Shown piece by piece: positions 5,999 through 26,173 of a stretch of 43,789 nt of DNA (positions are counted from its first letter, which is position 1; every line of letters starts with the position of its first letter). Under the pieces are notes generated by a model. That model ran no database searches, was not told the origin of the DNA, and saw only the letters and a program-made list of their open reading frames with translations. Position numbers and translations under genes: made by a program. The stretch lies in IMG/VR virus record IMGVR_UViG_3300020045_008873, positions 1-43,789 of that record, one strand, 5' to 3'. The DNA comes from a virus (Duplodnaviria; Caudoviricetes).

Positions 5999-6031
5999 TC
6001 CTGACTGTAAGCCTAGTTCTGACTGCTAGGC
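5999..6031 (-). promoter_or_regulatory. Leader with two CAGTCAG boxes, one in a hairpin loop and one overlapping the SD
   Basis: Minus strand reads gcctag-CAGTCAGaa-ctaggc-tta-CAGTCAGGAG-tgtaaaa-ATG. Confidence 0.55.
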
Positions 6032-7591
6032 CGGGCGAACCATTCCGATGAAGGCGTACGTCTCATGTACTTCGCCGACGCTAACCCCCATGTTCACATT
6101 GGCAGGCGCGAAGCTGTTAATACCGAAGTTGCCGGGCGTAGTGAATGCACCGATAACCTCAACATCATTGCCCAGGTTGCCACCGCTGAAATCACGCAAG
6201 ATGCGACAGGTTGCATCGGTATTGGCTTGCACCACAAAGAGCGTATTGCCCTGATACCCGGCAAAGTTCATATCACGGATTGCGCCAATACCCGTACGGT
6301 CAAACGGCATATTCTTGAACACAACCACAGTGGCATTCACATTACGCGAGCGCCAGATTTCACCGCCCGACGTGCCAAGAAACACTTCATTACCGCGTGT
6401 CGGTGGGCAGCGTACGCTGTTGATATTGGCAGATAGCGTATTGAGCGATGCATCACGCACCGCAACCAGTGAGGCGCTGAACTGCGATTGTCCCGGTGTT
6501 TTGATGAGACGAACGAACACACCACTGTTACCACCTGCATACGCATTGCCGCCATCGAAAGCGTGGATAGCGTTCAGGTTCTGTGTGGTGATGACGCCTG
6601 TGTCATAGGTGAGGGTGTAGGTAATGCCGCCATCAGTGGACAGCCATACACGCCCGCCATTGCCGACTGCGAGGATTGTGCTGCTATCAATCGCCACCGC
6701 CGCTTTGGGGAAGTTAGTGGAGGTGATACCACTAAAGCCGCTGGCACTTGCCCACAAAAGGGGGTCTGCCACGCCGTTATAGATGTCAGCCAATTGCGCG
6801 TAAATCGGTGCTTTGCTGTCACTGAATACCAGCACGCGGCTGCCTGCCAGTACCACGTCCAACGCATCAGCACCGACATAGATACCGATACGCACGCCCG
6901 TGCGTGTCACCCAGCGATCCACCGTCCAGTACAGCCAGGGAGCGCTGCCGCCTGCATACGCCGGTGAACTGTCACGATCTGTCACCGCCAGCCATGCGTC
7001 CTCTTCAGTCGTGCCTGTCACATTGCACGCACCCGCGCAAGTTTCGGCGCTGATACCAATCACGCGATTGAAGGCAATGTCAGCTGTGGTGAGTGAGATG
7101 TCATCATGCGCCACTGCCGTCCAGATTTCTTCAAGCGTGGAAGTGAGCGCCAGTGAGCGCAGCACGTCCGTTCCCTGCCCATCCATCACGGCGAGTCCAT
7201 TGTCGAATGACTTGCTGGTAAAGGTTGTTTCCAGATAGCCCACCATGCCGGGTGCAACATAGGCTGTCATGTTGGAACGGTTCGGAGCGCAATACTGGCG
7301 AGCGCGTAGAGTGAAGGGACAGGTTAGCCGCTTCAGGGCGTTCTCTGATGTGTAGGGATAGGTGAGATTGAAAGTCATGTCATCCGGGTTGCCCGTGTAC
7401 ACAATAGAGCGCGGTTGCAAGCCGCCTTTTTCGCCACGTCCCCACATGGTAGAACGCGCCCGCCCGCCGCCGCTAGGCGCGTCAATAGCGGCATTTTGAT
7501 CCATCACTGCCCAGGCATTACCGGGGCCGCCCACCTGAATATCAACGGTGCTTGCGTCACCACCATTTCGCCATTGGAGTCCTACTGCCAT
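6026..7591 (-). CDS. Major tail (tube) protein with C-terminal BNR/Asp-box beta-propeller
   Basis: Immediately upstream of the chaperones. Repeats such as WLSTDGGITY, WRSRNVNAT, AVGNGG and AGGNSG in the C-terminal two thirds. Confidence 0.65.
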   Translation of the reverse strand: MAVGLQWRNGGDASTVDIQVGGPGNAWAVMDQNAAIDAPSGGGRARSTMWGRGEKGGLQPRSIVYTGNPDDMTFNLTYPYTSENALKRLTCPFTLRARQYCAPNRSNMTAYVAPGMVGYLETTFTSKSFDNGLAVMDGQGTDVLRSLALTSTLEEIWTAVAHDDISLTTADIAFNRVIGISAETCAGACNVTGTTEEDAWLAVTDRDSSPAYAGGSAPWLYWTVDRWVTRTGVRIGIYVGADALDVVLAGSRVLVFSDSKAPIYAQLADIYNGVADPLLWASASGFSGITSTNFPKAAVAIDSSTILAVGNGGRVWLSTDGGITYTLTYDTGVITTQNLNAIHAFDGGNAYAGGNSGVFVRLIKTPGQSQFSASLVAVRDASLNTLSANINSVRCPPTRGNEVFLGTSGGEIWRSRNVNATVVVFKNMPFDRTGIGAIRDMNFAGYQGNTLFVVQANTDATCRILRDFSGGNLGNDVEVIGAFTTPGNFGINSFAPANVNMGVSVGEVHETYAFIGMVRPA

Positions 7592-7604
7592 AATGTTAAT
7601 CCTC

Positions 7605-8099
7605 TCATGAAGCTAGTGCTTTTGTGACTTGTGAATTGACTCGATCCTGCAAAGAAGGGATTAGTTCGTTAGTTATTGTTTCAATGAATTTTCTAGGTTT
7701 AATACCTGGGTGTATTGTTGTTTTAGTTGATACCCAACTGCCAAATGATTGCCCGCTCCCCTGATTAAACTTGTTTACTGGTGCCGTCCTGGCGCTGTAC
7801 CCGGTACGGAACTTGAGGCGCGGCGCGTTCTTAGCTGCAATGATATACGGCCCCTTCGTCCCTTTGTCCACATAACCGAATATTTTGACGTTGCGCCCTT
7901 TTGGTTTAATGGTCAATTCCATACGCGATTTCGTAACGACTATCGTGTCATCAAAATCCACCTTATGTGACCAGTCCCTTACCACGTCACGCAATCCCGA
8001 CTGAATATCATCAGACGCATTGGTAAGTGCAATGGTAGTCGCTTCTATCACCTTGCGCTTAATCTCTTTCAGGTGTGCAGCGGCCTGTTTCTTGCTCAC
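7605..8099 (-). CDS. HK97 gp10-like neck / head-tail component
   Basis: Basic 164 aa protein with YVDKGT and HPGIKPRKF motifs, plus synteny. Confidence 0.7.
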   Translation of the reverse strand: MSKKQAAAHLKEIKRKVIEATTIALTNASDDIQSGLRDVVRDWSHKVDFDDTIVVTKSRMELTIKPKGRNVKIFGYVDKGTKGPYIIAAKNAPRLKFRTGYSARTAPVNKFNQGSGQSFGSWVSTKTTIHPGIKPRKFIETITNELIPSLQDRVNSQVTKALAS

Positions 8100-8275
8100 T
8101 ACTTATCCAGCCACACCAACACGCAACCAATAACGCAAAACACTGCCGCTACGATTGCGAACGGAGCAGGGAGTGCCAGCGCCCATACGCATACGGCGAA
8201 CGTTACACCTGTAATGAAAAGTTTTGTGCCGATGATAGCGCTCCATTTACACAAATAAAAAAGGACGGTATGCAT
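8099..8275 (-). CDS. Small two-TM membrane protein (58 aa)
   Basis: MHTVLFYLCKWSAIIGTKLFITGVTFAVCVWALALPAPFAIVAAVFCVIGCVLVWLDK. ATG 8275 lies in a terminator loop with an AGGA SD in the stem. Stop abuts the next GTG. Confidence 0.45.
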   Translation of the reverse strand: MHTVLFYLCKWSAIIGTKLFITGVTFAVCVWALALPAPFAIVAAVFCVIGCVLVWLDK

Positions 8276-8284
8276 TACCGTCCT
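8257..8284 (-). terminator. Intrinsic terminator
   Basis: aggacggta-atgca-taccgtcct followed by a T run. Confidence 0.75.
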
Positions 8285-8395
8285 GACTGCGGTGTCCTGA
8301 CTTGTTCGCTTCAGTCGGTGGGGAGGTTGCCCTCCCTGCCTCATGAGTAACCGTGCAACGAGTCAGGGTCGTTGCCGTATGCCTACGTGGCTACG
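8257..8395 (-). ncRNA. Putative structured small RNA or regulatory leader
   Basis: Between a sigma70-like promoter and an intrinsic terminator. Hairpins cgtagcc/ggcatacg, gcaacga-ccctgac-tcgttgc and gggagg-GCAA-cctccc (GNRA loop). Confidence 0.6.
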
Positions 8396-8400
8396 AATTA

Positions 8401-8430
8401 AGTATACACGTTTTTTGTTAGGCGCGTCAA
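8401..8430 (-). promoter_or_regulatory. Sigma70-like promoter
   Basis: TTGACG-18 nt-TATACT in intergenic DNA. Confidence 0.7.
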
Positions 8431-8431
8431 T

Positions 8432-9151
8432 TTAAACCGTTCCTGCAAACAGCACCGGATACTTTCGCCGCGCCATATCACGATAGAATTGCCAGTACGT
8501 GCCTGCTAGTGCCGTCCGCTGGTTGCCCTCCGGCTTTAGGTAGCGGCTGTACACAATCGCGTCAATTTGCCTTGCTTGCACCCCCCCATTCACCAGCGCA
8601 CATTGCAGGCCGAAATCCTCAGCATAGGCAAAATCAGGATCAAAGCCGCCCACGCGCTGCCAATCGGATTGATGAAACATAAACGTAACGCCCGTGATAT
8701 TCTTGCGCGTAAGTGAACCGGGCGGCGCGGCTTTAATGCGGTTCACTTCATTGCCGCTGTGCTCTAAGTAGTCGCCATACACGAACGTTCCCGGCTGCCA
8801 TGCGTCCAAGAGTGGCGCTAGGGAATGCAGTTCATCGTCAGCATCAAGGCAAACTATCAACGGTGCATATGCCATTTCAATCAGGAAGTTACGAGCAAAG
8901 TTCACGCCCGCCCGCACGGTATGAAGCATCGAATAGAACTCTAATTCAGGTGTGGACTGACACAATCCCTCAAGTATCTGGCGCGTGCCATCGGTGCTCG
9001 CATCATCATATACCAGTACCTCAGTAGCGCCCGCTTCCACTGCGCTGTTAATGGCGCGGGCTATGGTGGCTTCACCGTTACGAACTGGGATGATACAGGC
9101 TACCTCATTGGTTCGTGGTATCACGGTTAATTCATCCTGGTTTCCGTTCAC
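8432..9151 (-). CDS. Glycosyltransferase family 2
   Basis: IIPVRN, YDDASTDGT, LDADD, VGGFD...AEDF motifs. Confidence 0.9.
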   Translation of the reverse strand: MNGNQDELTVIPRTNEVACIIPVRNGEATIARAINSAVEAGATEVLVYDDASTDGTRQILEGLCQSTPELEFYSMLHTVRAGVNFARNFLIEMAYAPLIVCLDADDELHSLAPLLDAWQPGTFVYGDYLEHSGNEVNRIKAAPPGSLTRKNITGVTFMFHQSDWQRVGGFDPDFAYAEDFGLQCALVNGGVQARQIDAIVYSRYLKPEGNQRTALAGTYWQFYRDMARRKYPVLFAGTV

Positions 9152-9588
9152 TCTTTAGGCTCATATACTAATGCCGCCCGGCCTTTCATGGTGATATAGA
9201 AAAACATCACACGACCATCGGCAGCGCGAGGGTCATATTCCTTTGTCAGTAAACCTTCAGTAACCATGTTATAGGCTTGACGCATTTTAGTTTCCTCGTT
9301 GGTTCTGATGCTCATGCCAAACTCGCCTTGTGCTGCCTTCAGTGTTTGCCATTGCGATTTCGATAACCCGCTGTAGGGGGTTTTCATCTCACGAATACGC
9401 CGCGCCAGTTCTAACACAATCTCACGGGCTGAAGCAATGAATAGGGCGGTCTCTGCGTCGGGTACTTCAAAAGTTTTGCCCGTTTCATAGTTGATAACTA
9501 CATTGCCACTGATAGCACCTAACTCAGCGCACGATTCAACAGCCACATTAACCAGTTTAATGAGTTCAATGTCTTTGTATTCGCTCAC
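9148..9588 (-). CDS. Hypothetical protein, possible C-terminal winged helix
   Basis: GTGA overlaps on both sides. LSKSQWQTL...EGLL...YITMKGRAAL pattern. Confidence 0.55.
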   Translation of the reverse strand: MSEYKDIELIKLVNVAVESCAELGAISGNVVINYETGKTFEVPDAETALFIASAREIVLELARRIREMKTPYSGLSKSQWQTLKAAQGEFGMSIRTNEETKMRQAYNMVTEGLLTKEYDPRAADGRVMFFYITMKGRAALVYEPKE

Positions 9589-10748
9589 GGGAACTTATGC
9601 CCCTTCTCAACACGCCTATCAAGGCAAACCTGCGAAGCAAGTACCTGTCCATATCTTGCGCCGAATAAACTATTCGCCTGCAATTTTGTTGCCACCGGAA
9701 TAATGCTGCCGCCTATCGTTTCAACCATTGGCCTGTGCCACTGTTCCCACCTATCCAGCGCCCAATAGCTCATCTTTGTCAATTTGCTCATGGTATTGGC
9801 CGCTGCGAATGCGCAGCAAGCTTCAAATAGTTCATTGTCGATATTGTTGTTTACCAGTGGACTGCCTGCCTTATAGTTCACGCGGATAGACTGAGGCAAG
9901 CCGCCGCAGATGTCAGCACATAGCCAACCCATGCGAAAGGCGCTCAGTTCGTTGTCCAGGATGTAACCGGAGTAGGTTTGCAGTACTGTGTTGTTATTGT
10001 CTAGCAGTTCAATGTTGGCACTGGTATCCGTATAGACTCTATAAATGTCAACGGCAGTGACAAAACCTGGGGAGGCGTTGGCAGTGTCTACTACGTTCGG
10101 GCTATTGAAGTTTGGATCATTCGCCACATACTCACGCGCCCATTCGCTCGGCTTCACAAACAGCCAGCGCGGTGCTTTAATCGTCACCGTACCCGCCGCA
10201 TCCGTGATAACCGTTGGTTCAATTTCATAGCGGTAATCGCCAGCAGTCGGAGCGCCATCGGCCACCTGAAAGTACAGTTTGATTTCAGCATTCGCCACCG
10301 CCGTAACCACCGTAATCGTTGCAGTGTCATTTACGCCAATGCTGTTTGGATCGCTATAGGTCACAGCCACCCCCGCCTGAATAAGTGACGTGGCGCGACT
10401 GCCCAATTCAATCATCTTGCACCAGCGTGCTTGATAAATTTGATTGCCGAACGGGCGGCCTAGTTTCGAGAGTGGAATTGTTTCGCTGAAATAAGCAGGG
10501 CATAACCAATAATTGAGGTCATCAGCCATTCGCCCAGCCGCTTGCTCTAATCCGCGTGCAATAAGTTCGCGTTCCTTTTGCAAATAGATTACGCCGCCCT
10601 TATCGTTGGCAGTTTGCACAGGAGCGCCCACGCCCGCGCACTGGTTGAAGTGCCAGGGATCTTCCATAAGCATTGGTTGCCATGCGTTGAGGAAGTGATT
10701 GTTTTGGCCGGGAGATAGATTCGAGGAAACTGATAACGCTATTGCCAT
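9585..10748 (-). CDS. Putative head-tail adaptor / head completion protein
   Basis: 387 aa, PQSIRVNYKAG motif followed by a helix as in gp6-like adaptors. Lies between capsid and neck genes. Confidence 0.55.
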   Translation of the reverse strand: MAIALSVSSNLSPGQNNHFLNAWQPMLMEDPWHFNQCAGVGAPVQTANDKGGVIYLQKERELIARGLEQAAGRMADDLNYWLCPAYFSETIPLSKLGRPFGNQIYQARWCKMIELGSRATSLIQAGVAVTYSDPNSIGVNDTATITVVTAVANAEIKLYFQVADGAPTAGDYRYEIEPTVITDAAGTVTIKAPRWLFVKPSEWAREYVANDPNFNSPNVVDTANASPGFVTAVDIYRVYTDTSANIELLDNNNTVLQTYSGYILDNELSAFRMGWLCADICGGLPQSIRVNYKAGSPLVNNNIDNELFEACCAFAAANTMSKLTKMSYWALDRWEQWHRPMVETIGGSIIPVATKLQANSLFGARYGQVLASQVCLDRRVEKGHKFP

Positions 10749-11231
10749 TTACGGCCTCCACTTCCATTGTAATCGCTTTGCCACATTATATATGGTTGTT
10801 GTGCTTACCCCAAACATAGTCGCTAAATCTCTTGTTTTCACATCTCTTAGGTAATGTTCCCGAATGTAATCTACTTGCTCATTTGTGAGTCTGTGTTGAT
10901 GATGTCCTTCACCTTTTATTCCTCTACCTTTATTATCTCTGTCTTTTGTGTTCTCTTGTGTCGTTCCGAGAAATAAATGCTTTGGGTTACAGCAAGGGGG
11001 ATTGTCACATTTATGGAGTACTTGTAATCCGTCAGGAATATTGCCGTAAGTTATCATCCATGAGAACCGGTGTGTGCGTGTGTGTGAATAAGGGTCTGGT
11101 CTAATGCTCCCATAACCATCTTTGTCTTTCCATCCATGCCATTCCCAACATTTTTCATCATCTGCGGTGATAGCAACTTTAGACCAGAATTTTAGAATAC
11201 GTTGTTCGGGGGTATACTGAGGTCTAGCCAT
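10749..11231 (-). CDS. HNH homing endonuclease (free-standing)
   Basis: CWEW...GYG...HRFSW...VLHKCDNPPCCNPKHLFLGT..EN plus C-terminal HTH. AT-rich. Start moved to ATG 11231 (AAGGA SD, upstream TATAAT and hairpin 11258-11291). Confidence 0.88.
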   Translation of the reverse strand: MARPQYTPEQRILKFWSKVAITADDEKCWEWHGWKDKDGYGSIRPDPYSHTRTHRFSWMITYGNIPDGLQVLHKCDNPPCCNPKHLFLGTTQENTKDRDNKGRGIKGEGHHQHRLTNEQVDYIREHYLRDVKTRDLATMFGVSTTTIYNVAKRLQWKWRP

Positions 11232-11332
11232 TTGTAAATCATCCTTACTTTGGTTAGAACGCGCTTTGATGTGTCTAGCATCAGGCGCGTTTGCTATTTT
11301 ATTTACTCCCTCAATTATACTACATAAGTACC

Positions 11333-11482
11333 TCAGTCGAACCAACCTATTTTCCTTTTCAATTCTACAACACATTTGCACCGTTGGCACAAAGCGCGGT
11401 GTGTCTTATTGTTCGCGAGGTAGAAAACATGGCGGAATGTGTGTCCGAACAGTCGGCAATACAGGCGGCGGATAAGGTTCAT
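11333..11482 (-). CDS. Small Cys/His protein, DUF1660-like (49 aa)
   Basis: Not in the track. MNLIRRLYCRLFGHTF...CQRCKC, ATGA-coupled to the upstream gene. Confidence 0.6.
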   Translation of the reverse strand: MNLIRRLYCRLFGHTFRHVFYLANNKTHRALCQRCKCVVELKRKIGWFD

Positions 11483-11715
11483 AGTGTCTCAAATAATGCT
11501 TGTGACTCTGCCTGCAATCGTTCCTTGCGCCGCTCTAACATTTTTGCAGTGTAGGGCATGACAGCACCAGAGGGGAATGTGATGTAAGTAACTATTGGCT
11601 CACCTGCCATGCAAGGCCAATGAGAGCACACCGGATTGGTGTGCTCCCCTACGCGCTCTAAAGACGGGCGCTGCTTATGCTTCGATTTCAACGCCTTGTG
11701 CCTCGGCAAAGTCAA
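11479..11715 (-). CDS. Hypothetical protein (start uncertain)
   Basis: Fills the gap after the helicase-methylase and is coupled to the next ORF. Confidence 0.4.
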   Translation of the reverse strand: MTLPRHKALKSKHKQRPSLERVGEHTNPVCSHWPCMAGEPIVTYITFPSGAVMPYTAKMLERRKERLQAESQALFETL

Positions 11716-14095: not shown

Positions 14096-16066
14096 CTATT
14101 CAGTGTGAGCGCGTTCCCAATCATTGGGATAGACTCTCAGTAATTCATCAATGTCGTCTTTGTGCACAAATAGATTATGACCGGGCTGATACTCATACCT
14201 CGTACCTGACACCCAAGCGTTGCCAAGTCCAAAGGCGTAGGGGTTGCGCCCTTTGTAAATGAGTTCAATGCTGTTTTGCATCTGCTCACTTTCGCCCATG
14301 TGCTTCTTAATCAGCGCCATGAGCTTTGTCACCTGTGCATCAAAGCTGTAATGCTCACGAACGAAGGCAGTGCCAGCGGCGGCTATTTCTTGTAGTTTAT
14401 CTATTTCATCACTTGTTGTATTTGCGAACCAATGGCGCAAGTCGTCAATTGACTTCCAGGGGACATAATGTCTATTTGCCCTCAATCCCGTCAGTTCATC
14501 CAGTCCATCCACATGCTGCTGTAGCACCACACCACCGCCCGCCGCGAGTGCCTGGAATAGTCGATTGCTCACGAACCCGCGAGAGGTGAAACCGTTATCT
14601 GATATGATGACCTTAGCTCGCCTGTATAGGAGCGCAGAGGTTGAAAAATTATAGAGGGTGGCGTGGGAATCGCCCGGTGTTTCAACGAGTCCGCCAAACG
14701 ATCTAACGACTTCTGCAATGGACTGTCGCTCTGGACTGCGGAGGCTGGCAAGGTACACAATAGGGAAGGACGATGGGTCACTGTCGAATGGATTAGGCCG
14801 TCCAAGCTCACGGAAGTAATTTGCCACATTTGTTTCTAATTCTCCTTGTGATTCCTCATAACCAATTTGCCAATAATCCCACTTGATGAACTCGCGTTCG
14901 TAAATCGGCACAACGTCAAGGTTCGTAATCAGTTGCAAGTCCACATGGCGCAGGAGCGCTATCATTTCGGGACTGGCAAGGCCGCCCGGTGCCTGGTCGC
15001 CATTCCAGTTAATAATGGTTGCACCCGTGCGCTGTCTGACTTCATGCAACATTTCAGCCGTAAGCGGCTTAGGCGATTGCAACTGAGTGAGGATTAAGTC
15101 GGGACGAAAGGTGTCTACCAAATCCATTAGCTGCACGCGCAGTTGTTTGGCGGGCACATCTAAGTAATCAAACTCTTGCACGATATGGGTAGCACCATAT
15201 TTGTTTTTTCCCCGCGCCAGTGCATCCCGCAACCCGCGCTTGCCATGTACAGGATGCTTTTGCACTGCCCACCCCGGCTCGTAAATAGGCAGGTAGAGAA
15301 TACGGGCGGCGCGTCTGTCCTGCTGTGGCATTTGCGGATCACTCATGACAATTACTCCGTTAGGCCACTGGTCATAAAAGAAGTGGCTATCATTCGACTT
15401 AATCCCTTTGTTACGGTTGATTTCGCGCAGTTCATCATCGGCTACATGATCCTCCACAATGCAACCGGGAACTGCGTCAACGGTGTAACCTTTGTTCCAT
15501 ATTTGAGCGCTGAGTGAATTGTCACCCGCATATACCTGCGCTCCCAACATCTCATCATGCGCACCTAGCCACCAGCCGCATTTGTCGCCTAACCATTTTC
15601 GGAACAAGCCGACTTGTGCATAGATTACGCTGGTGCGGTGTCCATCACGCAAGGCCGCCATGCGCAGGGTCTTGTAATCCTTTGTGGTGAAGAAGTCAGG
15701 TATGGGACGATTGTCTGCGAATGCCACCGCGCCACATTTCATGGTTTGCTCAAGGTGGACAATGGCAGGCATGATGCTGTTTTTCTTGAACGTTATATCA
15801 TCATTCGCCAGCATCACGTAAGTTCCCGTTGCGGCATACGCTCCACGCGTGAAGGCGCTAATCGCACCTAACAACGCCCCGTCCTCAATAAGCCTTATAT
15901 CAGGTTGCGCCTTGCACCATTCAATCGTGCCGTCATTCGACCCACCATCGACGATGACAATCTCATACGTGATACCCGGTAGCAGGTTGTCACGGAATGA
16001 TTGACACATTTCGGTGAGCATCTTGAGACGATTATAGCTGCCTGATACAAGGCTAATGAGAGGCAT
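14096..16066 (-). CDS. Two-domain glycosyltransferase (GT2 plus CgeB/Glyco_trans_1_2-like) with small C-terminal domain
   Basis: VDGGSNDGT and LANDD in the N-terminal half. NWNGD and SNRLFQALAAG in the C-terminal half. Confidence 0.85.
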   Translation of the reverse strand: MPLISLVSGSYNRLKMLTEMCQSFRDNLLPGITYEIVIVDGGSNDGTIEWCKAQPDIRLIEDGALLGAISAFTRGAYAATGTYVMLANDDITFKKNSIMPAIVHLEQTMKCGAVAFADNRPIPDFFTTKDYKTLRMAALRDGHRTSVIYAQVGLFRKWLGDKCGWWLGAHDEMLGAQVYAGDNSLSAQIWNKGYTVDAVPGCIVEDHVADDELREINRNKGIKSNDSHFFYDQWPNGVIVMSDPQMPQQDRRAARILYLPIYEPGWAVQKHPVHGKRGLRDALARGKNKYGATHIVQEFDYLDVPAKQLRVQLMDLVDTFRPDLILTQLQSPKPLTAEMLHEVRQRTGATIINWNGDQAPGGLASPEMIALLRHVDLQLITNLDVVPIYEREFIKWDYWQIGYEESQGELETNVANYFRELGRPNPFDSDPSSFPIVYLASLRSPERQSIAEVVRSFGGLVETPGDSHATLYNFSTSALLYRRAKVIISDNGFTSRGFVSNRLFQALAAGGGVVLQQHVDGLDELTGLRANRHYVPWKSIDDLRHWFANTTSDEIDKLQEIAAAGTAFVREHYSFDAQVTKLMALIKKHMGESEQMQNSIELIYKGRNPYAFGLGNAWVSGTRYEYQPGHNLFVHKDDIDELLRVYPNDWERAHTE

Positions 16067-16069
16067 GAG

Positions 16070-16879
16070 TTACACCTTTGCCGTTCGCTTTTTGCGCGTC
16101 TTTGTAACCTTCACAGGCGGTAAGGTGACACTCTCAATCGGTGCAATGCCCACTGACTGAACACTGTCATCTATCGCCACCTCTTGCCACTCCCCCGGTG
16201 CAACCGTGAGAGCAATGCCACAATCGCTTGGTTCAGGTAGGTACAGTCTGAAATAAGCGTTAGCTTGCGCTAGGCCATCTTGCACCGCTTTGCCCACCGG
16301 CGAGTAAGGCGCTCCGATGCTACCCGGCTGGTAATTGCCATCCCATGAGAACGTTTTAGGCGCGTCATGGTTCACTAAGAACCCGCCCGGTTGCAGCTTG
16401 CGTAAAGCCAATCGGCTCAAGGTGGCGACCAGTTCGGTTTCATGAGACGCATCTTCAAAGATAAACCCTATCGACTGGTCATCTTGTTCGGATAACCAGT
16501 CCTCGCCATTGGCACGTATCAGCGTGACATAGGGGCGCAAGTGGTTTGGGATTAACTCGCCATGCACCGCTTCCAACGTGCCGTTATCCACGCTAATGAC
16601 TTCACCGAATCCGTTGCGCTTAATGGCCGCTGCCAGATGCGACGTGCTGCAACCTGATAGCCCGCCGATCTCTACCACTGTCAACGGTTTCAGGTAGCGA
16701 ATCAGGGCGTAAAGTATCTGGCCTTCAACGCCCCACAGACTACCCATCGGAAAGACGCGCATAGCTTCATTGATGTGATAGCCGCCCAAGTCATCCTCAG
16801 CCGCAAATTCTTGCAGCTCTCGCGGATCTGCTTTTACCTGTGCGGCGACGAGTTGTAAGGTCTCGATAAGTGATGTCAA
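16070..16879 (-). CDS. Class I SAM methyltransferase (Methyltransf_24-like O-methyltransferase)
   Basis: VVEIGGLSGCST, IFEDASH, LQPGGFLVNHD. TTG start at 16879 with AGGAG SD, overlapping the upstream stop. Confidence 0.82.
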   Translation of the reverse strand: MTSLIETLQLVAAQVKADPRELQEFAAEDDLGGYHINEAMRVFPMGSLWGVEGQILYALIRYLKPLTVVEIGGLSGCSTSHLAAAIKRNGFGEVISVDNGTLEAVHGELIPNHLRPYVTLIRANGEDWLSEQDDQSIGFIFEDASHETELVATLSRLALRKLQPGGFLVNHDAPKTFSWDGNYQPGSIGAPYSPVGKAVQDGLAQANAYFRLYLPEPSDCGIALTVAPGEWQEVAIDDSVQSVGIAPIESVTLPPVKVTKTRKKRTAKV

Positions 16880-17640
16880 GATGTTTGCTCCTTTATATGT
16901 TGCACGTTGACGATAGTTTCCCAATTGAGGGGAACTGCCAGGATGTCGGTTTGTTCAGGGTTACTCCACACGTAACCCCATGATTCTAACATCTCAATAA
17001 TCTTATTTGCCGCCAGTCCGAACTGGTCAGCGTTTTGTTGACTGTATTCGGCAATGATAAACGGATGATATTTTTCAATGATATGCGCCGCGCCTTCGAG
17101 TACCAATTGCTCAGCGCCCTCAACATCAATCTTGAGAACCGTTGGCACGATGTCATTTTGCTTGCAAAACCTGTCCAACTTAATCACGCGCACAGGTACA
17201 GCCTCAGTTACTTTGTGATACTCTGGCGTGCCGTTCACAATACTAACGCCCTTTCCACCATCGGCCTTCACCACATGAGCCACACCCGTGCCGTCATAGT
17301 TGCCCACGGCTACCGGATGCGTACTGACTTTGTTCTGTAACCCGTTCAGCTTCACATTCTCATTAAGCACTTGATAGGTGAGGGTTACAGGCTCAAATGC
17401 CCACACGGTTAAGTCAGGATGCAAGGCAGACAGCAGCGTGTAACAACCCGTGCTTGCCCCCACGTCAAGTAGTGTAGCGCGTGGGTAGCGGCTTAATTGC
17501 TCCCATGCCCATGCCAGCGGCGCGGGGGAGTAGGGGCGCAGTGGATCATAATAGAAGCTGCCGCCCAATGTAGCAGTCCTATCGTCAACCAACACCTTGC
17601 GCCCGTCGTTGAGTAAGTCAACTTCAATTGTCACACTCAC
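16876..17640 (-). CDS. FkbM-family methyltransferase
   Basis: LDVGASTG, WAFEP, LKIDVEGAE..VLEGA. Confidence 0.92.
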   Translation of the reverse strand: MSVTIEVDLLNDGRKVLVDDRTATLGGSFYYDPLRPYSPAPLAWAWEQLSRYPRATLLDVGASTGCYTLLSALHPDLTVWAFEPVTLTYQVLNENVKLNGLQNKVSTHPVAVGNYDGTGVAHVVKADGGKGVSIVNGTPEYHKVTEAVPVRVIKLDRFCKQNDIVPTVLKIDVEGAEQLVLEGAAHIIEKYHPFIIAEYSQQNADQFGLAANKIIEMLESWGYVWSNPEQTDILAVPLNWETIVNVQHIKEQTS

Positions 17641-19373: not shown

Positions 19374-19374
19374 T

Positions 19375-19650
19375 TCAATCCTCCCTGATTGTGGAAGCAT
19401 ACATCTTAGGGAACTCAACCCCCATTGACCACAAAAGGCGCTGGCGATCTTCATAAAGAGATTGAAGTTCTTTGCTATCATCACTATTTAGTAAGTTACC
19501 ATTACCAATTATCACCTCATAGTGGTGTATTCCAGCGCTCACAGCGTTCCATTTGGTAATGAGTAACTTCCAAAACTGACGCTCTTTACTCATGTTACCA
19601 GTCCTCTCCCGGTTGGTCGTGTCCACTTGACACCCAACTTCTAGCTTCAT
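19375..19650 (-). CDS. Hypothetical protein
   Basis: Co-oriented ORF tiling the operon. Confidence 0.5.
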   Translation of the reverse strand: MKLEVGCQVDTTNRERTGNMSKERQFWKLLITKWNAVSAGIHHYEVIIGNGNLLNSDDSKELQSLYEDRQRLLWSMGVEFPKMYASTIRED

Positions 19651-19952
19651 AGTACCTCCGCATAATCTTTAGCCAGCTTGTCATATTCAACCTGGCACTT
19701 ACTCCGCAGTTCGTTGTCAGTTGGCAACCGGTCAATGAGGCGCTTCAGGAACTTGAGCCATACACCGACCAGGGTGTATACCTGAGCATAGGACGGGTTA
19801 TCCGTTTCCTTCGTCATACGTTCCAGAGTCATAAACATGGCATAGTCCAAGTGCGGCCAGTCAATACCCGGCAAGCCTAGCAGTAACCCGGCCTCCACTT
19901 TGGTTGCTGCCATAGTTTGCCGCATGTCTCGAAAGGGCAGGCGCTTAGACAT
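19647..19952 (-). CDS. Hypothetical protein
   Basis: Co-oriented, overlapping its neighbours. Confidence 0.55.
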   Translation of the reverse strand: MSKRLPFRDMRQTMAATKVEAGLLLGLPGIDWPHLDYAMFMTLERMTKETDNPSYAQVYTLVGVWLKFLKRLIDRLPTDNELRSKCQVEYDKLAKDYAEVL

Positions 19953-20733
19953 GGCTCTCAATTCCTTTAGCAAACGTGTATTCCTTGCACAGCAGTTCGT
20001 GTAACGCTATGGCATACTCATCAAGTAGGTTGCTTTTGAGCATGGCCTCAGTGAACCCGGCAATGTACTGATACTCGGATTGCATCATCGTGCCCCGCGT
20101 GAATATGCCAGCATCGTTCACAGTCTCAGTAACGAGGGGCAGCTTATGCGCGGCGGCTAGGCACCAGCGCAAGGACGCTATGCCGGGCGTGTTGTCATTT
20201 TGATGCACATGCACCATAAGCCGCGATTGCAGCAGTTTGACGGAGCGCTCGCGCCCCCACAGGTTGCTAATCGGAGCAAGGCGCAATCCCGCTTCTATCA
20301 ACTGCCTTGTGACAACCTGCCGACGGTGTGTCTGATAACTTAAGAGCGACACATCAAATACTTTAGTCGCCGGGTAGTTTATGCCAACTTCGTTCAGGCG
20401 CAAGTCGCCGCCCATTGGCACGTATTCAAAATCCTTGCTCTTTGCCAACCACGCATCACTTGCCCACACCCGACTGACTCCCGGTGGCGTGTTGTGTTCA
20501 TTAGTGAGCATCCATTCCAACTGCCATAGAATGATCTGCGCTTTTGCGCCCGGCCAGCCGTTCACAGTCTCCCCATTGGCAGGTGTGAAGATATAGGTGT
20601 TATCCGATTGCGGATCAAGCTCATCCACGTAAATGGTTTCATAGCCTGCCCATGCAACCATGTTCCAGAAGTCGGAATACGAAACATAGCCGATGTCCTG
20701 ATACCGCGTTTTGCAAAATATCACACTGCCCAT
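19945..20733 (-). CDS. Putative glycosyltransferase (GT-B-like, divergent)
   Basis: IILWQLEW, RVWASD, lwG.ER..LLQSRLMVHVHQ...SLRWCLAAAHKLPLVTE resembles the GT-B C-terminal lobe. Context supports it. Confidence 0.6.
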   Translation of the reverse strand: MGSVIFCKTRYQDIGYVSYSDFWNMVAWAGYETIYVDELDPQSDNTYIFTPANGETVNGWPGAKAQIILWQLEWMLTNEHNTPPGVSRVWASDAWLAKSKDFEYVPMGGDLRLNEVGINYPATKVFDVSLLSYQTHRRQVVTRQLIEAGLRLAPISNLWGRERSVKLLQSRLMVHVHQNDNTPGIASLRWCLAAAHKLPLVTETVNDAGIFTRGTMMQSEYQYIAGFTEAMLKSNLLDEYAIALHELLCKEYTFAKGIESHV

Positions 20734-20942
20734 TATTTGTAATCCATGTATGACTGACAAATAGCAGGCACTTCACTTGACGACTTGCCAGCATATACAA
20801 TTAAGCATATGCGCTCGTCAATGCATCCACTCGTAGTACAATTCTTAAATGAAGGTGGTATGAAAGATATATAAGCACTCAGCAACCCCAGAAATACAAC
20901 CAACGCAACCAATAGCCACATTCCAAACTTCAAGTATTTCAT
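20733..20942 (-). CDS. Small membrane-anchored Cys-rich protein
   Basis: N-terminal hydrophobic helix and four Cys. Confidence 0.55.
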   Translation of the reverse strand: MKYLKFGMWLLVALVVFLGLLSAYISFIPPSFKNCTTSGCIDERICLIVYAGKSSSEVPAICQSYMDYK

Positions 20943-20954
20943 ATCACTCTCCTG

Positions 20955-21293
20955 CTACAGATACTCGAATTCAATGCGGTTTACAATTCTGTTTCGACTG
21001 CCTTTCATGTGCTGGCAAAAGTAATTCACGAACTGCTCTGGAGCCCAACCGGGAAAGCCTTCCCGCACTACATCGTCAGGGGTGATTGCGTCCAGCGGTT
21101 CCAGTCGCACGGATACCACTCGTATCATTCCGAAACGTTCTGGACTTTCGCCCTTCCTCAATCCCATCTTTTTATTGACCACTTCCAACACGTCACCCGG
21201 TTTAAGGAATGTCCATCCCTCGCGGCGGGTTACTGTTTTGGAACGGTCTTTTATCTGGCGCTCTGTTAGTGCAAAACTGATAAGGTAAGCCAT
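20955..21293 (-). CDS. ASCH-domain protein
   Basis: KTVTRR..W..LKPGD and ITPDDVVREGF motifs. Confidence 0.85.
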   Translation of the reverse strand: MAYLISFALTERQIKDRSKTVTRREGWTFLKPGDVLEVVNKKMGLRKGESPERFGMIRVVSVRLEPLDAITPDDVVREGFPGWAPEQFVNYFCQHMKGSRNRIVNRIEFEYL

Positions 21294-21559
21294 TAGATGT
21301 TATGCCGCCATCCTGTATAGCTGTGCAGGAATAATGCCACACCTGCAATCGCCAGCGCGTCCGTAACCACGTTTGCACCAATGAGCCTCAGCACCAGCGC
21401 CACCCATACCGATAGACAGATGATACAAGTTGTTAGGCCGCCTAATGGCAGGCGTTCACGTAGCCACTCGAACACGCCGAACGGGCCTGTTGTGTTGACT
21501 ACTGCATAGCTTATGTACCATGCGGCGCTGGCATAGGTCAGCAGTTCAAGGAGTGTCAT
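21293..21559 (-). CDS. DUF1360-like membrane protein
   Basis: GPFGVFEWLRE...LTTCIICLSVWVA. Confidence 0.7.
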   Translation of the reverse strand: MTLLELLTYASAAWYISYAVVNTTGPFGVFEWLRERLPLGGLTTCIICLSVWVALVLRLIGANVVTDALAIAGVALFLHSYTGWRHNI

Positions 21560-22431
21560 GTCAAACCGCTTTGCTTCAATACCTGTTCCCGCTTGGGCGC
21601 AAGCTGACGCGGATCTCTGGTTGCTCGAAACAATGGCCGCCCTTGATTGTCCTTAAGCCTCTCAATATCAGTCGGACTAACCATGAGCTTTGAGCCATTG
21701 CCACCGACATAAAGGCGTTGACTGTAAGGACTGTACTCACTGCGCATACCCGTCCACAGTGTTTCAGCCAACACATCGCCCGGCTGCCCCGCTCCGGGGT
21801 CAGCTTGCACTGCACTATCGGGATTACCACAACATGCCATAATTCTTGCCATTCCTCCATTACGTAATGCTACTCGTTCGATAATGTCCTTATAATCCGC
21901 CCGTGCGTGAAAGTCTTTACTGCGCTGCCCGGTGTCATCCGGCCTCAGCACAAGCGGCTTGTCTAAGTGTATGCCGCAAATGCCAGCGGCATACGAACGC
22001 ATGTAAAAGTCAGCATCTTCATGACCGGGTAATGTCTCATCAAAACCGCCTAAGTATTTGAACAGGGCAGTCGGGTAGAGCGTGGTGACAATGTGGAAAC
22101 TTTCACCGCTCCATGCACACGGTTTCGGCTTGAATACCCACTGCCCCGCACCCTCTGCCCATGAGGTGAATACGTACTTACCCTCCTGATAATCTAGGAG
22201 GCATTCAGCCACGAACGACGGATGCAAGATGTCATCTGCATCAAGGAACACGAGGAAAGGCGTATCTACGGTTTTCCCATAGTTGCGCCCAATGGCAGGC
22301 GTGCCGATAGATTCAATCGCCTTTACATCGCAACGGATTGTTTGCACCTCTGCACTCTTAACCGCCCGCTCTACAATGTTGGCATGATAGGGCGCAAATG
22401 GCACAATGATGGTAGCAATTGCATCCGCCAT
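21556..22431 (-). CDS. Glycosyltransferase family 2 with C-terminal MACCG domain
   Basis: IIVP, RNYG, FLDADD, GGFDE...HEDADF. Confidence 0.88.
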   Translation of the reverse strand: MADAIATIIVPFAPYHANIVERAVKSAEVQTIRCDVKAIESIGTPAIGRNYGKTVDTPFLVFLDADDILHPSFVAECLLDYQEGKYVFTSWAEGAGQWVFKPKPCAWSGESFHIVTTLYPTALFKYLGGFDETLPGHEDADFYMRSYAAGICGIHLDKPLVLRPDDTGQRSKDFHARADYKDIIERVALRNGGMARIMACCGNPDSAVQADPGAGQPGDVLAETLWTGMRSEYSPYSQRLYVGGNGSKLMVSPTDIERLKDNQGRPLFRATRDPRQLAPKREQVLKQSGLT

Positions 22432-22435
22432 GAGG

Positions 22436-22699
22436 TTACTCGTTAGTGTCTTTTGTGGCTGGATCAAATACTACTTCTGAGTAAATGGTATCCACTATTT
22501 CAGACTTCTCAATAGCCATGCTTCCGAGCCAGCGTGTAGCGCCACCCATACTCTCTCTATTCGCGCTGATAAATATCTCAACGCCAAGAGGGTTTTCCCT
22601 GCTCACGTCAAACAGCATGTCATCAATGACCCACTGCTCAATTTCCAACTCAATAACCCATTGTCCATCTTTACGGAACATCTTTGCATTTGTTTCCAT
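22436..22699 (-). CDS. Hypothetical protein
   Basis: GGGAG SD before ATG 22699, co-oriented. Confidence 0.55.
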   Translation of the reverse strand: METNAKMFRKDGQWVIELEIEQWVIDDMLFDVSRENPLGVEIFISANRESMGGATRWLGSMAIEKSEIVDTIYSEVVFDPATKDTNE

Positions 22700-22709
22700 G
22701 TCGCTCTCC

Positions 22710-23063
22710 CTATTTACTCGCAAACTTGAAATTAACCACTTCCACCGCGTCTTGGATAATGCGCTTTAGTTCTAGCCCTGCACTGGTAATGGCAATCACC
22801 ACCGCCCGCCTGTCACTGGTATCAGGCCGCCGCGTGATAAGGCGCTGCCGTTCCAGCGAATCCAGTATCGGAGTGAAGGCCGTTGGAGCCGCCCCGACTG
22901 CCCGTGCCAAATCAGAGGGGTGCTGTTTGTCCTGTGTGTATAGGGCAAGCAAGATGTGAACTTGTTTCGGTGTAAGGTCGCAAGCGGGCGTTGGTTCGAG
23001 CTGCTCCATGAGCGCCAGTTCAATGGCGGCTAGTCGCTTTGCGGTGTCTACCCATACTTCCAT
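22710..23063 (-). CDS. MarR-family transcriptional regulator
   Basis: LTPKQVHILLAL...LERQRLITRRPDTSDRRAVVIAITSAG. Confidence 0.9.
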   Translation of the reverse strand: MEVWVDTAKRLAAIELALMEQLEPTPACDLTPKQVHILLALYTQDKQHPSDLARAVGAAPTAFTPILDSLERQRLITRRPDTSDRRAVVIAITSAGLELKRIIQDAVEVVNFKFASK

Positions 23064-23103
23064 AGTTGCGTCCCTCGTATATGCTGAATTAAGTCTATAT
23101 GAA

Positions 23104-23132
23104 ATTATACGCTATTTGTTACATAGATGCAA
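23104..23132 (-). promoter_or_regulatory. Sigma70-like promoter for the marR-glycosylation operon
   Basis: TTGCAT-17 nt-TATAAT. Confidence 0.75.
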
Positions 23133-23196
23133 TAGTTGTATTATTTAATAAGCCTAGCGAAGGGAGGTGATGTAAAGCCGCTGGTATCGCTACATA

Positions 23197-23230
23197 CAAG
23201 AGAGGCCGCACAATTGTGCGGCCTCTCTTG
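23197..23230. terminator. Perfect 34-bp palindrome, probable terminator after the capsid gene
   Basis: caagagaggccgcacaa|ttgtgcggcctctcttg. Confidence 0.75.
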
Positions 23231-23253
23231 ATTCTGTGAAGTAGCAGATACTA

Positions 23254-24729
23254 CTATGAAACTGTGTAGTTGCCATCCCATCTTGAAGTGCCGCCGTCAG
23301 CGTGCGAAATTGTGTCGCCTGGGTAAGCGCCGCGGAATGGAGCCAGGTAGCTGTACTGAATGGTGTCAATGCGTGCTGCCAAGAAAGGTGCGTCCTGAAT
23401 AAGCCGGAACTTGCCCGCGAAGAGGAGCTCCATACAGTAGGCTGTACGCATCTTGGTTGCCAGCCACATGCCGTTATTCACACCCGTGAACTCGTTAGGC
23501 CCCACAAAGTTGGCGAAGTCCATAGCCTGTGCATTGTCCATCGGCTTGTATTGCAGGTTAATCATGCTCATGCTCTGCCATTCGAAAGGCAGAATGAACG
23601 TTGAACTTGCAGTGTACACCGATGAACTGGCGCGGGTTTCACGGATACCATCACTGAACACAACCTGCACGGGTGTGCCGTCGATCAGGAGGTAACGCCC
23701 TTTCCACATGTCATCTTCAAACTTCTTAACCGCCTCTGCGTTCTGGAAGTTGGGGTTACCAGCGCTGCCCGCGCAATAAGCCACATAGTACTGGCACGCA
23801 TACAACCGTGTCAGCACCTTGAACATACGCATCGGCATGACAATCACCCAGCGCATGCCACCGAGTCCGGTTTGTTCGGCAATGTCGGTCAGGCCAAAGT
23901 AAGTATCGACCAGCATCTGAGCGAAGGTGCGTCCGTTCACAGTCGCATCAATGCCACTGCCCCAGGTAATCACCTGACTATCAGCACCAGGGCAGGCGAT
24001 ACCCGTATCCAAATCGACTTTTCCAGTTGTGATCTGGCGCTCAAGTCCTCTGAACTCGCTAATCCAACCGCGTTCGGTTGAGGCGCTGCCTGTGGTTTCA
24101 TTGCCACGAATAAGCACCAGTTCCAATTCGCGCTCCATTTCAGCGCCTAACGTGAACAGTTCAGTTGCCAGCAAGGCGGTGTTGCGGTTCGAGATGTCGA
24201 GCCGTCCCATAATGTCTGGGATGAGCGGGTTCGGGTTCTGGTTCAAGTTCAGAATGCGCTTCTCAACATCGGCATAATCGGCATACTCACCCGCCTCTGC
24301 CACGTTGACAATCTTAGACTTCCAATACGACTTGCCCCAGATGTAATTCTGGACGCATCGTTTCAGTTGCCCAGCAGTCGGGGCAGTGCCGCAAAAGCCT
24401 GTTGGGTTCGTGCCTTCACCGCCCGTAACGCCCGTCATGATACCGATCTTCTCATTAGCGATCAGCGACGGACGTACGCCCAAGATGGAAGCGAGTGAGC
24501 GCGGGCGCATGAAACTGCTAAACATATCCGGGCGAATGCCGGGATAACTGAACACACCATAGTCACCGCTGCCATCGGCATACGGGCCGTAGGGTGGGTT
24601 ATTGGTTGCCACAGTTCCAGAGGCGGCATGTTTCTGTACCTCTAAAATCTGGCGGGTAATGACCTCAGTCAGGTCGGTTAGTTCTTTGGCGGTAAACGTC
24701 TTATCGCCGTTGCTCAGTGGAGCGGCCAT
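23254..24729 (-). CDS. Major capsid protein
   Basis: 491 aa, follows the protease/scaffold and precedes a strong hairpin. RG...EFRGL motif as in HK97-fold capsid proteins. Confidence 0.85.
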   Translation of the reverse strand: MAAPLSNGDKTFTAKELTDLTEVITRQILEVQKHAASGTVATNNPPYGPYADGSGDYGVFSYPGIRPDMFSSFMRPRSLASILGVRPSLIANEKIGIMTGVTGGEGTNPTGFCGTAPTAGQLKRCVQNYIWGKSYWKSKIVNVAEAGEYADYADVEKRILNLNQNPNPLIPDIMGRLDISNRNTALLATELFTLGAEMERELELVLIRGNETTGSASTERGWISEFRGLERQITTGKVDLDTGIACPGADSQVITWGSGIDATVNGRTFAQMLVDTYFGLTDIAEQTGLGGMRWVIVMPMRMFKVLTRLYACQYYVAYCAGSAGNPNFQNAEAVKKFEDDMWKGRYLLIDGTPVQVVFSDGIRETRASSSVYTASSTFILPFEWQSMSMINLQYKPMDNAQAMDFANFVGPNEFTGVNNGMWLATKMRTAYCMELLFAGKFRLIQDAPFLAARIDTIQYSYLAPFRGAYPGDTISHADGGTSRWDGNYTVS

Positions 24730-26057
24730 TATTGTGCATTTCCTTTCACAGCTACACCCATACCCGTCCAGAAGTTTGTCTTTGGATCATCGACAGGGAT
24801 TACATTTTCAAGTCCATCAGTTTCTTTGCGAACAGTACTCACGTCCTGCGAAGCGCGGCGCGGCGGCATGTTGACCACCGTGCGCAGTGCGTCCAATTCC
24901 TTTTGCCAGGCGGCGGTCTGCGATTCAAACTTGTCATCGAGCGCCTTGAGTGCCGCATCTTTGGCAGCTAGTGCTTTGGCCTGCAAGGTCACAATACTGA
25001 CCAGTTCATTCATGCCCGTTGCCAAGTCGCCATAGACAGCGCTGAGAGCCTTGCGACTTTCATCGTCGCCGCCTTCTTCTTCGTCACTGCCTTCGTCCGG
25101 TGTGACCTGTGCATAATCCTTGTATGCAATCCGCATATCTTCCAGCGCTTTGCCGCGCTGCTCGTCTGCCGCCACAATTTCAGCCGCCTTAGCTTTGCCT
25201 ACCACGGCCTCCAGGTAGCGGAGTTTTTCTTCGCTCATTGTCTTTTGCATTGTCATTAACTCCTCAAATGATGTATAGGGATTAGCCGCCGCGTAGGGTG
25301 GCAGGGTTGTAATCTCAAGGGTGTTGTAATCTTCATAGTGCTTGCCGTCATACGCCCATTCTGGCGCTGTGAAACCGTGTGACATTTTCAGCTTGCCTGC
25401 ATTCTTGCGATAGTAGGCAATCGCTTTTTCAGCCTGAGGCGTGTCATCGAAGTGACCGAGCGCATGTACAAAGTGGTCATTGCGCCACACGACATCGGCC
25501 TGCCCGTGTTCAGTGCCGGGCGTGTGCCAGGCCATCAATACGGGCATGGGTACAAGTCCCATGTCCAAGCGGGCGATATAATTATCGTGCGCTTTTTCAG
25601 TGAGGATTTCGCCCTCTAAATCTTCGAAGTTGTTTGTGAATATCGCGTGCCAGTGCCACTGTCCATCAGTGCCCTTGAACACGGTAAATGCATCATCACG
25701 GGGTTTTGCTTTGGGGATTAAATCGCGGAGGCGTTGAGCAAAGGTGCGTGGCTTGCGTGCCATCTCAACATAACCGGCTGACTCGCTTATGGTTTCCGCC
25801 ATATCCTCAATAGCTTCTACCAATGTTTCAGTGGTATCAGCAGGGGGAGGAGGTGATTCTTCCCAGCGGTCACAGTAGCCCGTAGCCAGAATAGGCTCTG
25901 GGGCGCAATCAACGATATGGCAGTCATCATAAGCAGGTAAATAGAATCGGCAATTGGCACAAGCCTTGCCGGGCGTGGCGGATAACGGGACATAGTTCAC
26001 TTCGGATTGTGACAGGTAGCCTGCGAATGCTTTGTCGGTGGTAGCTTGTGCTGTCAA
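24729..26057 (-). CDS. Prohead protease / scaffold with N-terminal HiPIP-like Cys domain
   Basis: DLEGE, LMAWH, MSHGF, EITTL...AANP protease motifs and a coiled-coil C-terminus. TTG 26057 has a GAGG SD. Confidence 0.8.
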   Translation of the reverse strand: MTAQATTDKAFAGYLSQSEVNYVPLSATPGKACANCRFYLPAYDDCHIVDCAPEPILATGYCDRWEESPPPPADTTETLVEAIEDMAETISESAGYVEMARKPRTFAQRLRDLIPKAKPRDDAFTVFKGTDGQWHWHAIFTNNFEDLEGEILTEKAHDNYIARLDMGLVPMPVLMAWHTPGTEHGQADVVWRNDHFVHALGHFDDTPQAEKAIAYYRKNAGKLKMSHGFTAPEWAYDGKHYEDYNTLEITTLPPYAAANPYTSFEELMTMQKTMSEEKLRYLEAVVGKAKAAEIVAADEQRGKALEDMRIAYKDYAQVTPDEGSDEEEGGDDESRKALSAVYGDLATGMNELVSIVTLQAKALAAKDAALKALDDKFESQTAAWQKELDALRTVVNMPPRRASQDVSTVRKETDGLENVIPVDDPKTNFWTGMGVAVKGNAQ

Positions 26058-26076
26058 GGTTTTGCCTCGTAAACGC

Positions 26077-26173
26077 AAAAAGCGCATAAGTGCTATGCGC
26101 TGCCCTGACCAGCTACCTATCCTGACGATAGGGGGTTGTTTCTATTATGGCGGAATTAAGGTGCTATTGTCAA
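26077..26173 (-). promoter_or_regulatory. Promoter plus attenuator-like leader of the head genes
   Basis: TTGACA-18-CATAAT (26144-26173), hairpin cctatc-GTCAG-gatagg, second GTCAGGG, then agcgcata-gcact-tatgcgct followed by TTTT. Confidence 0.7.

Follow-up and report, generated by a model that had tools for sequence, protein, structure and literature searches.

The DNA examined here, the complete 43,789-nucleotide (nt) virus record IMGVR_UViG_3300020045_008873 (hereafter the window), belongs to a tailed phage in which a small RNA is predicted on the minus strand, at a locus flanked by a glycosyltransferase gene and the tail module. The RNA presents a 7-nt loop, and boxes matching that loop stand in three minus-strand leaders, namely its own transcript, which doubles as the leader of the tail module, the leader of a prohead protease/scaffold gene, and that of a probable tail assembly chaperone gene. 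Compensatory changes between loop and boxes support a real phage RNA regulon for virion genes, one that is uncatalogued; the RNA likely controls the genes that build the virion and probably does so by holding their terminators open.

The RNA locus (minus strand throughout) begins with a promoter motif, TTGACG-18-TATACT (8401-8430), which is kept in relatives. From this promoter and a terminator we infer a terminated transcript of ~140 nt (8256-8396), found in 13 distinct copies among the related phages. An earlier note on this DNA had proposed both the promoter and the transcript; the promoter does lie ahead of the loop, and the transcript stays a prediction. Its 5' part is predicted to form a three-way junction (8347-8394) composed of P1 (8389-8394 with 8347-8352), the P2 hairpin (8376-8387), often capped by a GGCA tetraloop, and the P3 hairpin (8355-8375), which carries the recognition loop CCCUGAC at its tip (8362-8368). 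This topology is the minimum-energy fold of the first 54-68 nt in 13/13 copies despite widely differing sequences, with folding z-scores from -0.4 to -3.9 that are individually modest. 3' of the junction follow a spacer hairpin, P4 (8321-8336), variable in sequence and length, then two boxes and the terminator. Cis box 1 (GUCAGGA, 8295-8301) lies outside any conserved hairpin and pairs with the loop in the consensus fold of 10 copies. Cis box 2 (8281-8287) occupies the loop of a predicted antiterminator hairpin, ACCG/CGGU (8277-8293), which recurs with differing stem sequence in 13/13 copies, and the intrinsic terminator (8256-8284, or 8262-8284 as delimited more narrowly), a hairpin with a U tract, closes the leader before the tail module. 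A Shine-Dalgarno (SD) role that the earlier note gave to box 2 finds no support, since in three relatives (L059, L007 and L002) the ATG after it does not share the reading frame of the conserved gene that comes next. A possible hydrophobic ORF (open reading frame) of 58 aa (8099-8275, minus strand) starts in the terminator loop and is carried by an insertion that the closest relative, L059, lacks. The Rfam search proposed in the earlier note returned no family for the RNA, with no meaningful match in the window (E<=5), in 8200-8460 (E<=10) or in four related loci (E<=10).

The two distant leaders, also on the minus strand, share this design in part. The head leader starts with a second promoter, TTGACA-18-CATAAT (26144-26173), overlooked in the earlier note and kept in 6/7 head leaders. 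It continues with hairpin 1 (26116-26132, CCTATC/GATAGG), whose pairing is kept with differing stem sequence among relatives and whose loop holds head box 1 (26120-26126), and with hairpin 2 (26099-26113, GCUG/CAGC), whose loop holds head box 2 (GTCAGGG, 26103-26109) and which overlaps the intrinsic terminator (26075-26101, or 26081-26101 as delimited more narrowly; hairpin and U tract) in 7/7 head leaders. In the chaperone leader, hairpin 1 (6011-6031, GCCTAG/CTAGGC) exposes a weak upstream box, GUCAGAA (6017-6023); the earlier note had placed this box correctly, and a correction concerns its sequence, which reads GTCAGAA in DNA letters and makes 5/7 pairs. Such an upstream box, as the second box of the leader, was seen only in the window, L059, L001 and L051. 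Hairpin 2 (5993-6010, UUACA/UGUAA) exposes the chaperone box GUCAGGA (5999-6005), the purine half of which is the likely SD site. Across 17 related chaperone leaders this box occurs in 13, generally in a hairpin loop, and its SD-like purine half precedes the start codon by a few bases. In the best matches to a promoter the spacer is 18 bp long at 12/12 RNA loci with upstream sequence, where the -10 element reads TAnAnT and the -35 is weak in two, and at 6/7 head leaders, hinting at a preference of the host polymerase; a literature search on 18-bp spacers gave nothing usable.

All six boxes and the loop were recovered on the minus strand in the three leaders that the earlier note had named, and the loop, CCCTGAC at 8362-8368 in DNA letters, is the exact computed complement of the boxes. 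The box hexamer alone is mildly over-represented in the window (26 occurrences against 17.2 ± 4.1 expected, a level reached in 3 of 100 shuffles). Counting GTCAG pairs, again as proposed earlier, places the tandem arrangement beyond chance: five tandem pairs 12-20 nt apart occur among 43 minus-strand sites, compared with a mean of 0.36 in random placements (0 of 20,000 reached five), and with three intergenic tandem pairs GTCAG ranks first of all 1024 pentamers, in a count for which two over-long ORF calls were corrected by hand. A fourth tandem GTCAG pair (38023-38042, minus strand) falls within an HNH gene, at its 5' end, and was not seen in relatives.

Relatives were gathered from viral contigs, metagenomes and genomes through alignments of the tube-like and protease proteins. 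The RNA element stands at the equivalent place in 14 of 15 loci with sequence upstream of the tube gene, and L059 adds one more; L058, at 44% tube identity, has a terminator only and no RNA element. The distinct set comprises 13 elements, window included, after L004, L005 and L047 were left out as near copies of L003. Reading of the tail-module junction gave no such element in G007, in G009 or in six more distant loci, and the distant relatives G007 and L058 both carry a bare terminator directly before the tail module. The element therefore appears confined to a clade with tube identity of ~58% or more, its absence from distant relatives resting mainly on the reading of gene junctions. A search with our model R1 returns L047 along with the 10 copies on which the model was trained, gives L051 as a weak match and does not detect L048 and L053, so that the lack of matches in distant phages counts for little as evidence.

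Pattern scans and further protein scans brought no new close phage. The head pattern hit eight loci, six of them known, and the remaining two (L096, L101) were rejected as coding matches in unrelated gene order; the tail pattern hit ten, one of them known, and the other nine, without relatives of the query proteins, were rejected as well, as was a descriptor match at L016:19704 in coding-like sequence. Two further repeats were seen in passing. In G009, a phage without the element, TCCGACC occurs twice before the tail terminator (G009:C1:4575-4660), near a hairpin tip and at a terminator arm, and no loop complementary to it was found in the G009 record; G001 carries three related palindromic intergenic repeats with GTCAG (G001:C1 18605, 23644, 40400).

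The regulon is carried by the computed covariation between loop and boxes. Pairs were counted by explicit register, MAFFT alignments being off register, and a GTCAG spanning an ATG-TCA-G start was not counted as a box, except in one L050 row. The class CCCUGAC/GUCAGG comprises seven copies, to which L053 (GCCUGAC, degenerate boxes) may be added, and the other classes are CCCUAAC/GUUAGG in L002, CCCCAAC/GUUGGG in L055, CCCCGAA with UUCGGG and CUCGGG in L001, UCCCGAC with GUCGGGA and GACGGGA in L051, and CUCUGAC/GUCAGAG in L048. With one representative per class, boxes form 76 Watson-Crick pairs at 84 positions with their own loop in cis, a total that no other of the 720 assignments attains and that compares with a mean of 57. 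In the tube-protein tree, where inner support is limited, the five derived classes occupy four or more separate branches. Covariation had been put forward in the earlier note as a test of the idea, and loop and boxes do change together in five classes other than CCCUGAC, both in cis and at distant sites.

Distant boxes follow the loop in two lineages each, the head boxes in G002 and G001 and the chaperone box in G002 and L051. Among the seven phages with both loci, a comparison that four metagenome loci lie outside, all 14 head boxes pair at 6-7 of 7 positions with the loop of their own phage. In G002 the loop reads CCCUAAC, and GUUAG is shared by all five boxes, the two in cis, the two of the head leader and the one of the chaperone leader, with a head box of GUUAGGG; pairing of CCCUAAC with GUCAGGA would be poor (-4.1 versus -11.1 kcal/mol). 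In G001 the loop CCCCGAA is accompanied by head boxes UUCGGGA and GUCGGGG, and the chaperone leader of L051 carries UUCGGGAG and UACGGGAG for the loop UCCCGAC. The match between head leader and loop persists even next to a diverged or exchanged protease (G004, 30% identity) or capsid (G002, 28%).

The position of box 2 points to what the pairing might do. At all 20 terminator sites (13 RNA loci and 7 head leaders), box 2 is found in the loop of a 4-5-bp hairpin computed to exclude the terminator, a regularity that the earlier note had lacked; the 3' arm of this hairpin is the 5' arm of the terminator, and its stems vary (ACCG/CGGU, GCCG/CGGU, UAUCG/CGAUA, ACUGU/ACAGU, GCUG/CAGC). The terminator of the RNA locus is more stable than the box-2 hairpin by 4-11 kcal/mol and takes 1-4 nt of box 2 in 13/13 copies (0-4 nt without the first U of the tract), so that binding of box 2 would compete with termination. 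Loop-box 2 duplexes are predicted at about -8.5 to -14.5 kcal/mol.

Beyond the transcript itself, we infer that the RNA pairs in trans and in which direction it acts. Antitermination is favoured because box 2 lies in a terminator-excluding hairpin at 20/20 sites, in an ANTAR-like layout, and the anatomy as a whole favours antitermination at two terminators together with a translational block at the chaperone gene. That pairing with box 2 would stabilise the terminator-excluding hairpin, and that the RNA would thereby switch on head and tail transcription, seems to us an evenly balanced proposition. Both late promoters would fire constitutively, with transcription halting at the terminators. 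Box 1, made first in the RNA's own transcript, would trap the loop and keep the short RNA inactive until enough loops are set free, by copy number or by processing; these could then kiss box 2 in nascent leaders and stabilise the antiterminator, allowing read-through of the head and tail operons, with two boxes giving docking or cooperativity, and pairing over the chaperone SD would trim translation of that gene. The fuller picture, in which a natural trans-acting antiterminator small RNA replaces a Q or N protein, its retunable 7-nt loop kissing dual-hairpin switches to license the head and tail operons, timing itself by trapping its own loop and having diverged into orthogonal specificity classes, we offer tentatively and put just short of even. 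No Q, N, NusG or ANTAR family match was found in the 50 ORFs of the window or in 129 ORFs of four relatives (Pfam only), most of which have no match at all.

Several observations weigh against an RNA that pairs at all these sites and keeps terminators open. The chaperone boxes of G001 stay GUCAG and mismatch its loop CCCCGAA, three clade members (L007, L048, L054) have no chaperone box, and the boxes of L053 are degenerate. G001 head box 2 pairs equally well with CCCUGAC (-12.9 versus -11.4 kcal/mol), and most G002 boxes can also pair with CCCUGAC through G-U pairs. Covariation in trans comes from two lineages per distant site, which makes the sequence support for action in trans good but thin. 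Head box 2 is clear of the terminator (0 nt overlap in 7/7), and the two states of the head leaders are near balance (-1.5 to +4.4 kcal/mol); with balanced states and a clear box, pairing might just as well open the hairpin and promote termination. A box over the likely chaperone SD implies repression there, and thus a mixed logic. The predicted trapping of the loop by box 1 varies from 0.00 to 1.00 among copies, from a folding model that cannot score kissing loops. Finally, the nearest natural analogues, C4 and CI, repress. As a separate observation, G001 carries an extra promoter-terminator unit directly before the RNA (L001:9150-9290) that contains UGACUU; speculatively, this could pair with the AAGUCA of the mismatched G001 chaperone boxes.

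The same pairing with the opposite sign would make the RNA a C4- or CI-like lysogen repressor, which melts the weak box-2 hairpins so that terminators form, blocks the chaperone SD and silences the virion genes, with the loop classes acting as immunity groups. We consider this main rival rather unlikely, though it explains the SD overlap more simply, the box covering the likely SD in the 13 of 17 leaders mentioned above, and it suits the energetically poised head leaders. A serine recombinase in G003 and an actin-like protein in G002 are consistent with temperate life, and C4 and CI are themselves repressors, few changes in the C4 loop limiting cross-reaction between P1 and P7. Repression sits poorly with the RNA locus, where the terminator already wins by the margin given above and uses part of box 2, so that pairing there can only oppose it, and where no alternative default antiterminator was seen; nor was a conserved box found at early or repressor genes, apart from one single box common to G006, which is 90% identical.

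Another arrangement would have the loop act as a folding switch for the tail module in cis only, with the short head-leader RNA (about 62 nt, two box loops) as the trans partner that titrates the loop and couples tail to head transcription. The strong promoter and terminator of the head leader, both of its boxes being displayed in loops, would fit this, and cis pairing is the best-supported covariation; it is nonetheless improbable, as it leaves unexplained both the head box-2 hairpin overlapping the head terminator (7/7) and a chaperone-start box inside a long mRNA.

That an RNA-binding protein of phage or host, ANTAR- or CsrA-like, reads the boxes and the loop merely hides them in cis is very improbable. 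Dual hairpins overlapping a terminator are an ANTAR signature, and the many ORFs without a family could hide such a reader. RNA-RNA pairing is favoured over it because loop and boxes covary by Watson-Crick matching: the boxes drift through GUCAGG, GUUAGG, GUUGGG, GUCGGG, UUCGGG and GUCAGAG with a strict match to the loop. Furthermore, the box loops measure 5-10 nt and do not follow the A1/G4 rule of ANTAR hexaloops, and no ANTAR or CsrA family match was found among the phage ORFs of the window and four relatives. The CsrA variant raised in the earlier note is much weakened, since CAGGA is not kept, its core being lost in GUUAGG, GUUGGG, UUCGGG and GUCAGAG. Chance, or repeats at the DNA level without RNA function, is extremely unlikely even for a hexamer as common as this one (26 in the window), being largely refuted by the covariation, with compensatory change between loci 14-35 kb apart, promoters and terminators that are kept, and a fold kept while its sequence changed.

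The genes concerned belong to the virion-building part of the phage. The first head target (24729-26057, minus strand) has a predicted structure matching the T4 gp21 protease (E 7.7e-4) and probably starts at a TTG at 26057, judging from its sequence and from relatives. It is followed by a probable major capsid protein gene (23254-24729, minus strand), without a Pfam or PHROG match, for which a language model lists look-alikes (scores 0.96-0.97) that carry SU10_MCP in 35% and 89% of members. Terminase subunits (29431-31486) were identified by family matches, and a 787-aa gene takes the portal position by its place alone. In the tail module (minus strand), a 164-aa gene (7605-8099) and a 521-aa tube-like gene (6026-7591) are named by position only; the latter has a predicted all-beta N-terminal domain and a beta-propeller, and fold searches gave propellers only, leaving its tube identity unconfirmed. 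The probable tail assembly chaperone gene (5409-5990, minus strand) rests on its position before a tape-measure-like gene (2546-5137, PF10145 match) and on an Atlas lead, Phage_TAC_4 at 0.88. No capsid relative was found among annotated phages, where the only DNA match is 24 nt long and due to chance, and no cultured relative was found; one DNA sequencing run gave three short pieces and was uninformative about expression. Host labels are Anaerolineae on one 39%-identical homologue and Gammaproteobacteria on the assembly with the closest relative. Glycosyltransferase and methyltransferase genes are interspersed among the virion genes (8432-9151, 14096-17640, 21556-22467), possibly for virion glycosylation. 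In the closest relative, G006, a TET/JBP oxygenase gene stands beside one for a TET-associated glycosyltransferase (L079:2119-3740), a DNA hypermodification pair, and a short tandem repeat in the window (40242-40285, cgcgccactca x3) lies within a pentapeptide-repeat gene.

A second, separate loop/box element was seen in the leader upstream of the replication genes (38385-38523, minus strand). It consists of a -10 element TATAAT (38518-38523), a small hairpin, a box TAGACCCA (38474-38481), and then a hairpin of ~85 nt with a U tract at its end and, at its tip, TGGGTCTA (38429-38436), a sequence complementary to the box. Box and tip read TCAACCCA/TGGGTTGA in G006 and TTGAACCA/TAGGTTTA in G002, which are compensatory changes. 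Directly after this early -10 stands a single GTCAG(A) (38506-38511, minus strand), with GTCAGG at the equivalent place in G006 and none seen in G002; it is a possible fourth target of the RNA.

Late genes of tailed phages are usually controlled by proteins, such as Q, late sigma factors or activators. Remote control of virion operons by a 50-nt RNA module that pairs through a 7-nt loop would, if true, be a new solution whichever the direction of its effect. More distant relatives have the same gene order and lack the element, so that the clade would show how an existing late region gained an RNA regulon, which then diversified; if antiterminating, the six loop/box classes would be candidate orthogonal switches.

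In PMC5320573 and PMC6906374, C4 of P1 and P7 is described as an RNA of three stems whose loops recognise short targets, with few bases setting specificity. The RNA predicted here resembles C4 (RF01695) as a small phage RNA with three stems, a loop that reads short targets, a target within its own transcript, and few loop changes that distinguish phages, and the C4 stems P1-P3 have their counterpart in the three-way junction predicted in 13/13 copies. It differs in that C4 uses two loops, a' and b', whereas here only the P3 loop covaries and both boxes match it; the 5' domain is about 50-65 nt long compared with 77 nt, and there is no GGW start in the window. In addition, C4 acts on the icd-ant immunity operon around it, whereas the targets here are distant virion operons and intrinsic terminator switches. 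The Rfam models of c4 and Chloroflexi-1, two motifs listed in PMC2864571, have no match here, RF01695 included. By sequence, the RNA appears to act like C4 and CI and yet to be no C4 member. A further set of candidates, in PMC10690425, gave no match to six short motifs in the part of its supplements that was searched, and the motif may sit unnamed among them.

C4 and P4 CI are matured from a precursor by RNase P. According to PMC4825925, CI is released by cleavage of a leader that terminates early, and it controls termination by pairing with sites in the transcript it comes from; a terminated leader, sites in the same transcript and a control of termination are predicted here too. CI promotes termination of replication genes and has targets on both sides, whereas here both cis boxes lie downstream, other targets are distant and the anatomy favours read-through. 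Energetics oppose premature termination of the CI type at the RNA locus and are neutral towards it at the head leaders. IsrK of the Gifsy-1 prophage is likewise a short terminated RNA, which in trans activates the read-through version of its own transcript; it affects translation of orf45 by forming long helices and works through the proteins AnrP and AntQ, whereas here a 7-nt loop is predicted to act directly on several late-operon terminators.

Sites of CsrA/RsmA have a conserved GGA, often within CAGGA, in hairpin loops, whereas box 2 is GUCAGGG, GUUAGGG, GUCGGGG or GUCAGAG in many copies. In T-boxes, tRNA pairing stabilises an antiterminator, and the RNA that is read belongs to the host. 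The ANTAR layout (EutV, NasR, AmiR), which antiterminates according to PMC3369931, repeats at several places a pair of small hairpins of which the second and a terminator exclude each other. The second hairpin has its counterpart at 20/20 sites here, and the first is present in head leaders but not conserved at the RNA locus; the ANTAR ligand is a protein dimer that reads hexaloops with A1/G4, whereas second-hairpin loops here measure 6-10 nt (GUCAGGG, GUUAGGG, UCGGGG) and track a complementary RNA. The lambda antiterminator, Q, is a protein; in the PR'-tR' arrangement of that phage, transcription from a late promoter that fires constitutively is held back at a terminator (PMC7547250). Titles and the beginnings of abstracts, most subscription journals lying outside the search, named no natural phage small-RNA antiterminator. 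Small transcription activating RNAs (STARs) are engineered antiterminators that act in trans and block terminator formation, by invading the terminator (PMC5648800); if antiterminating, the phage RNA would be their natural counterpart and categorically new. Among STARs, T-boxes and lambda Q there is no natural small RNA from a phage whose loop is tunable, and the predicted RNA is a new variant among the loop-reading regulatory RNAs of phages.

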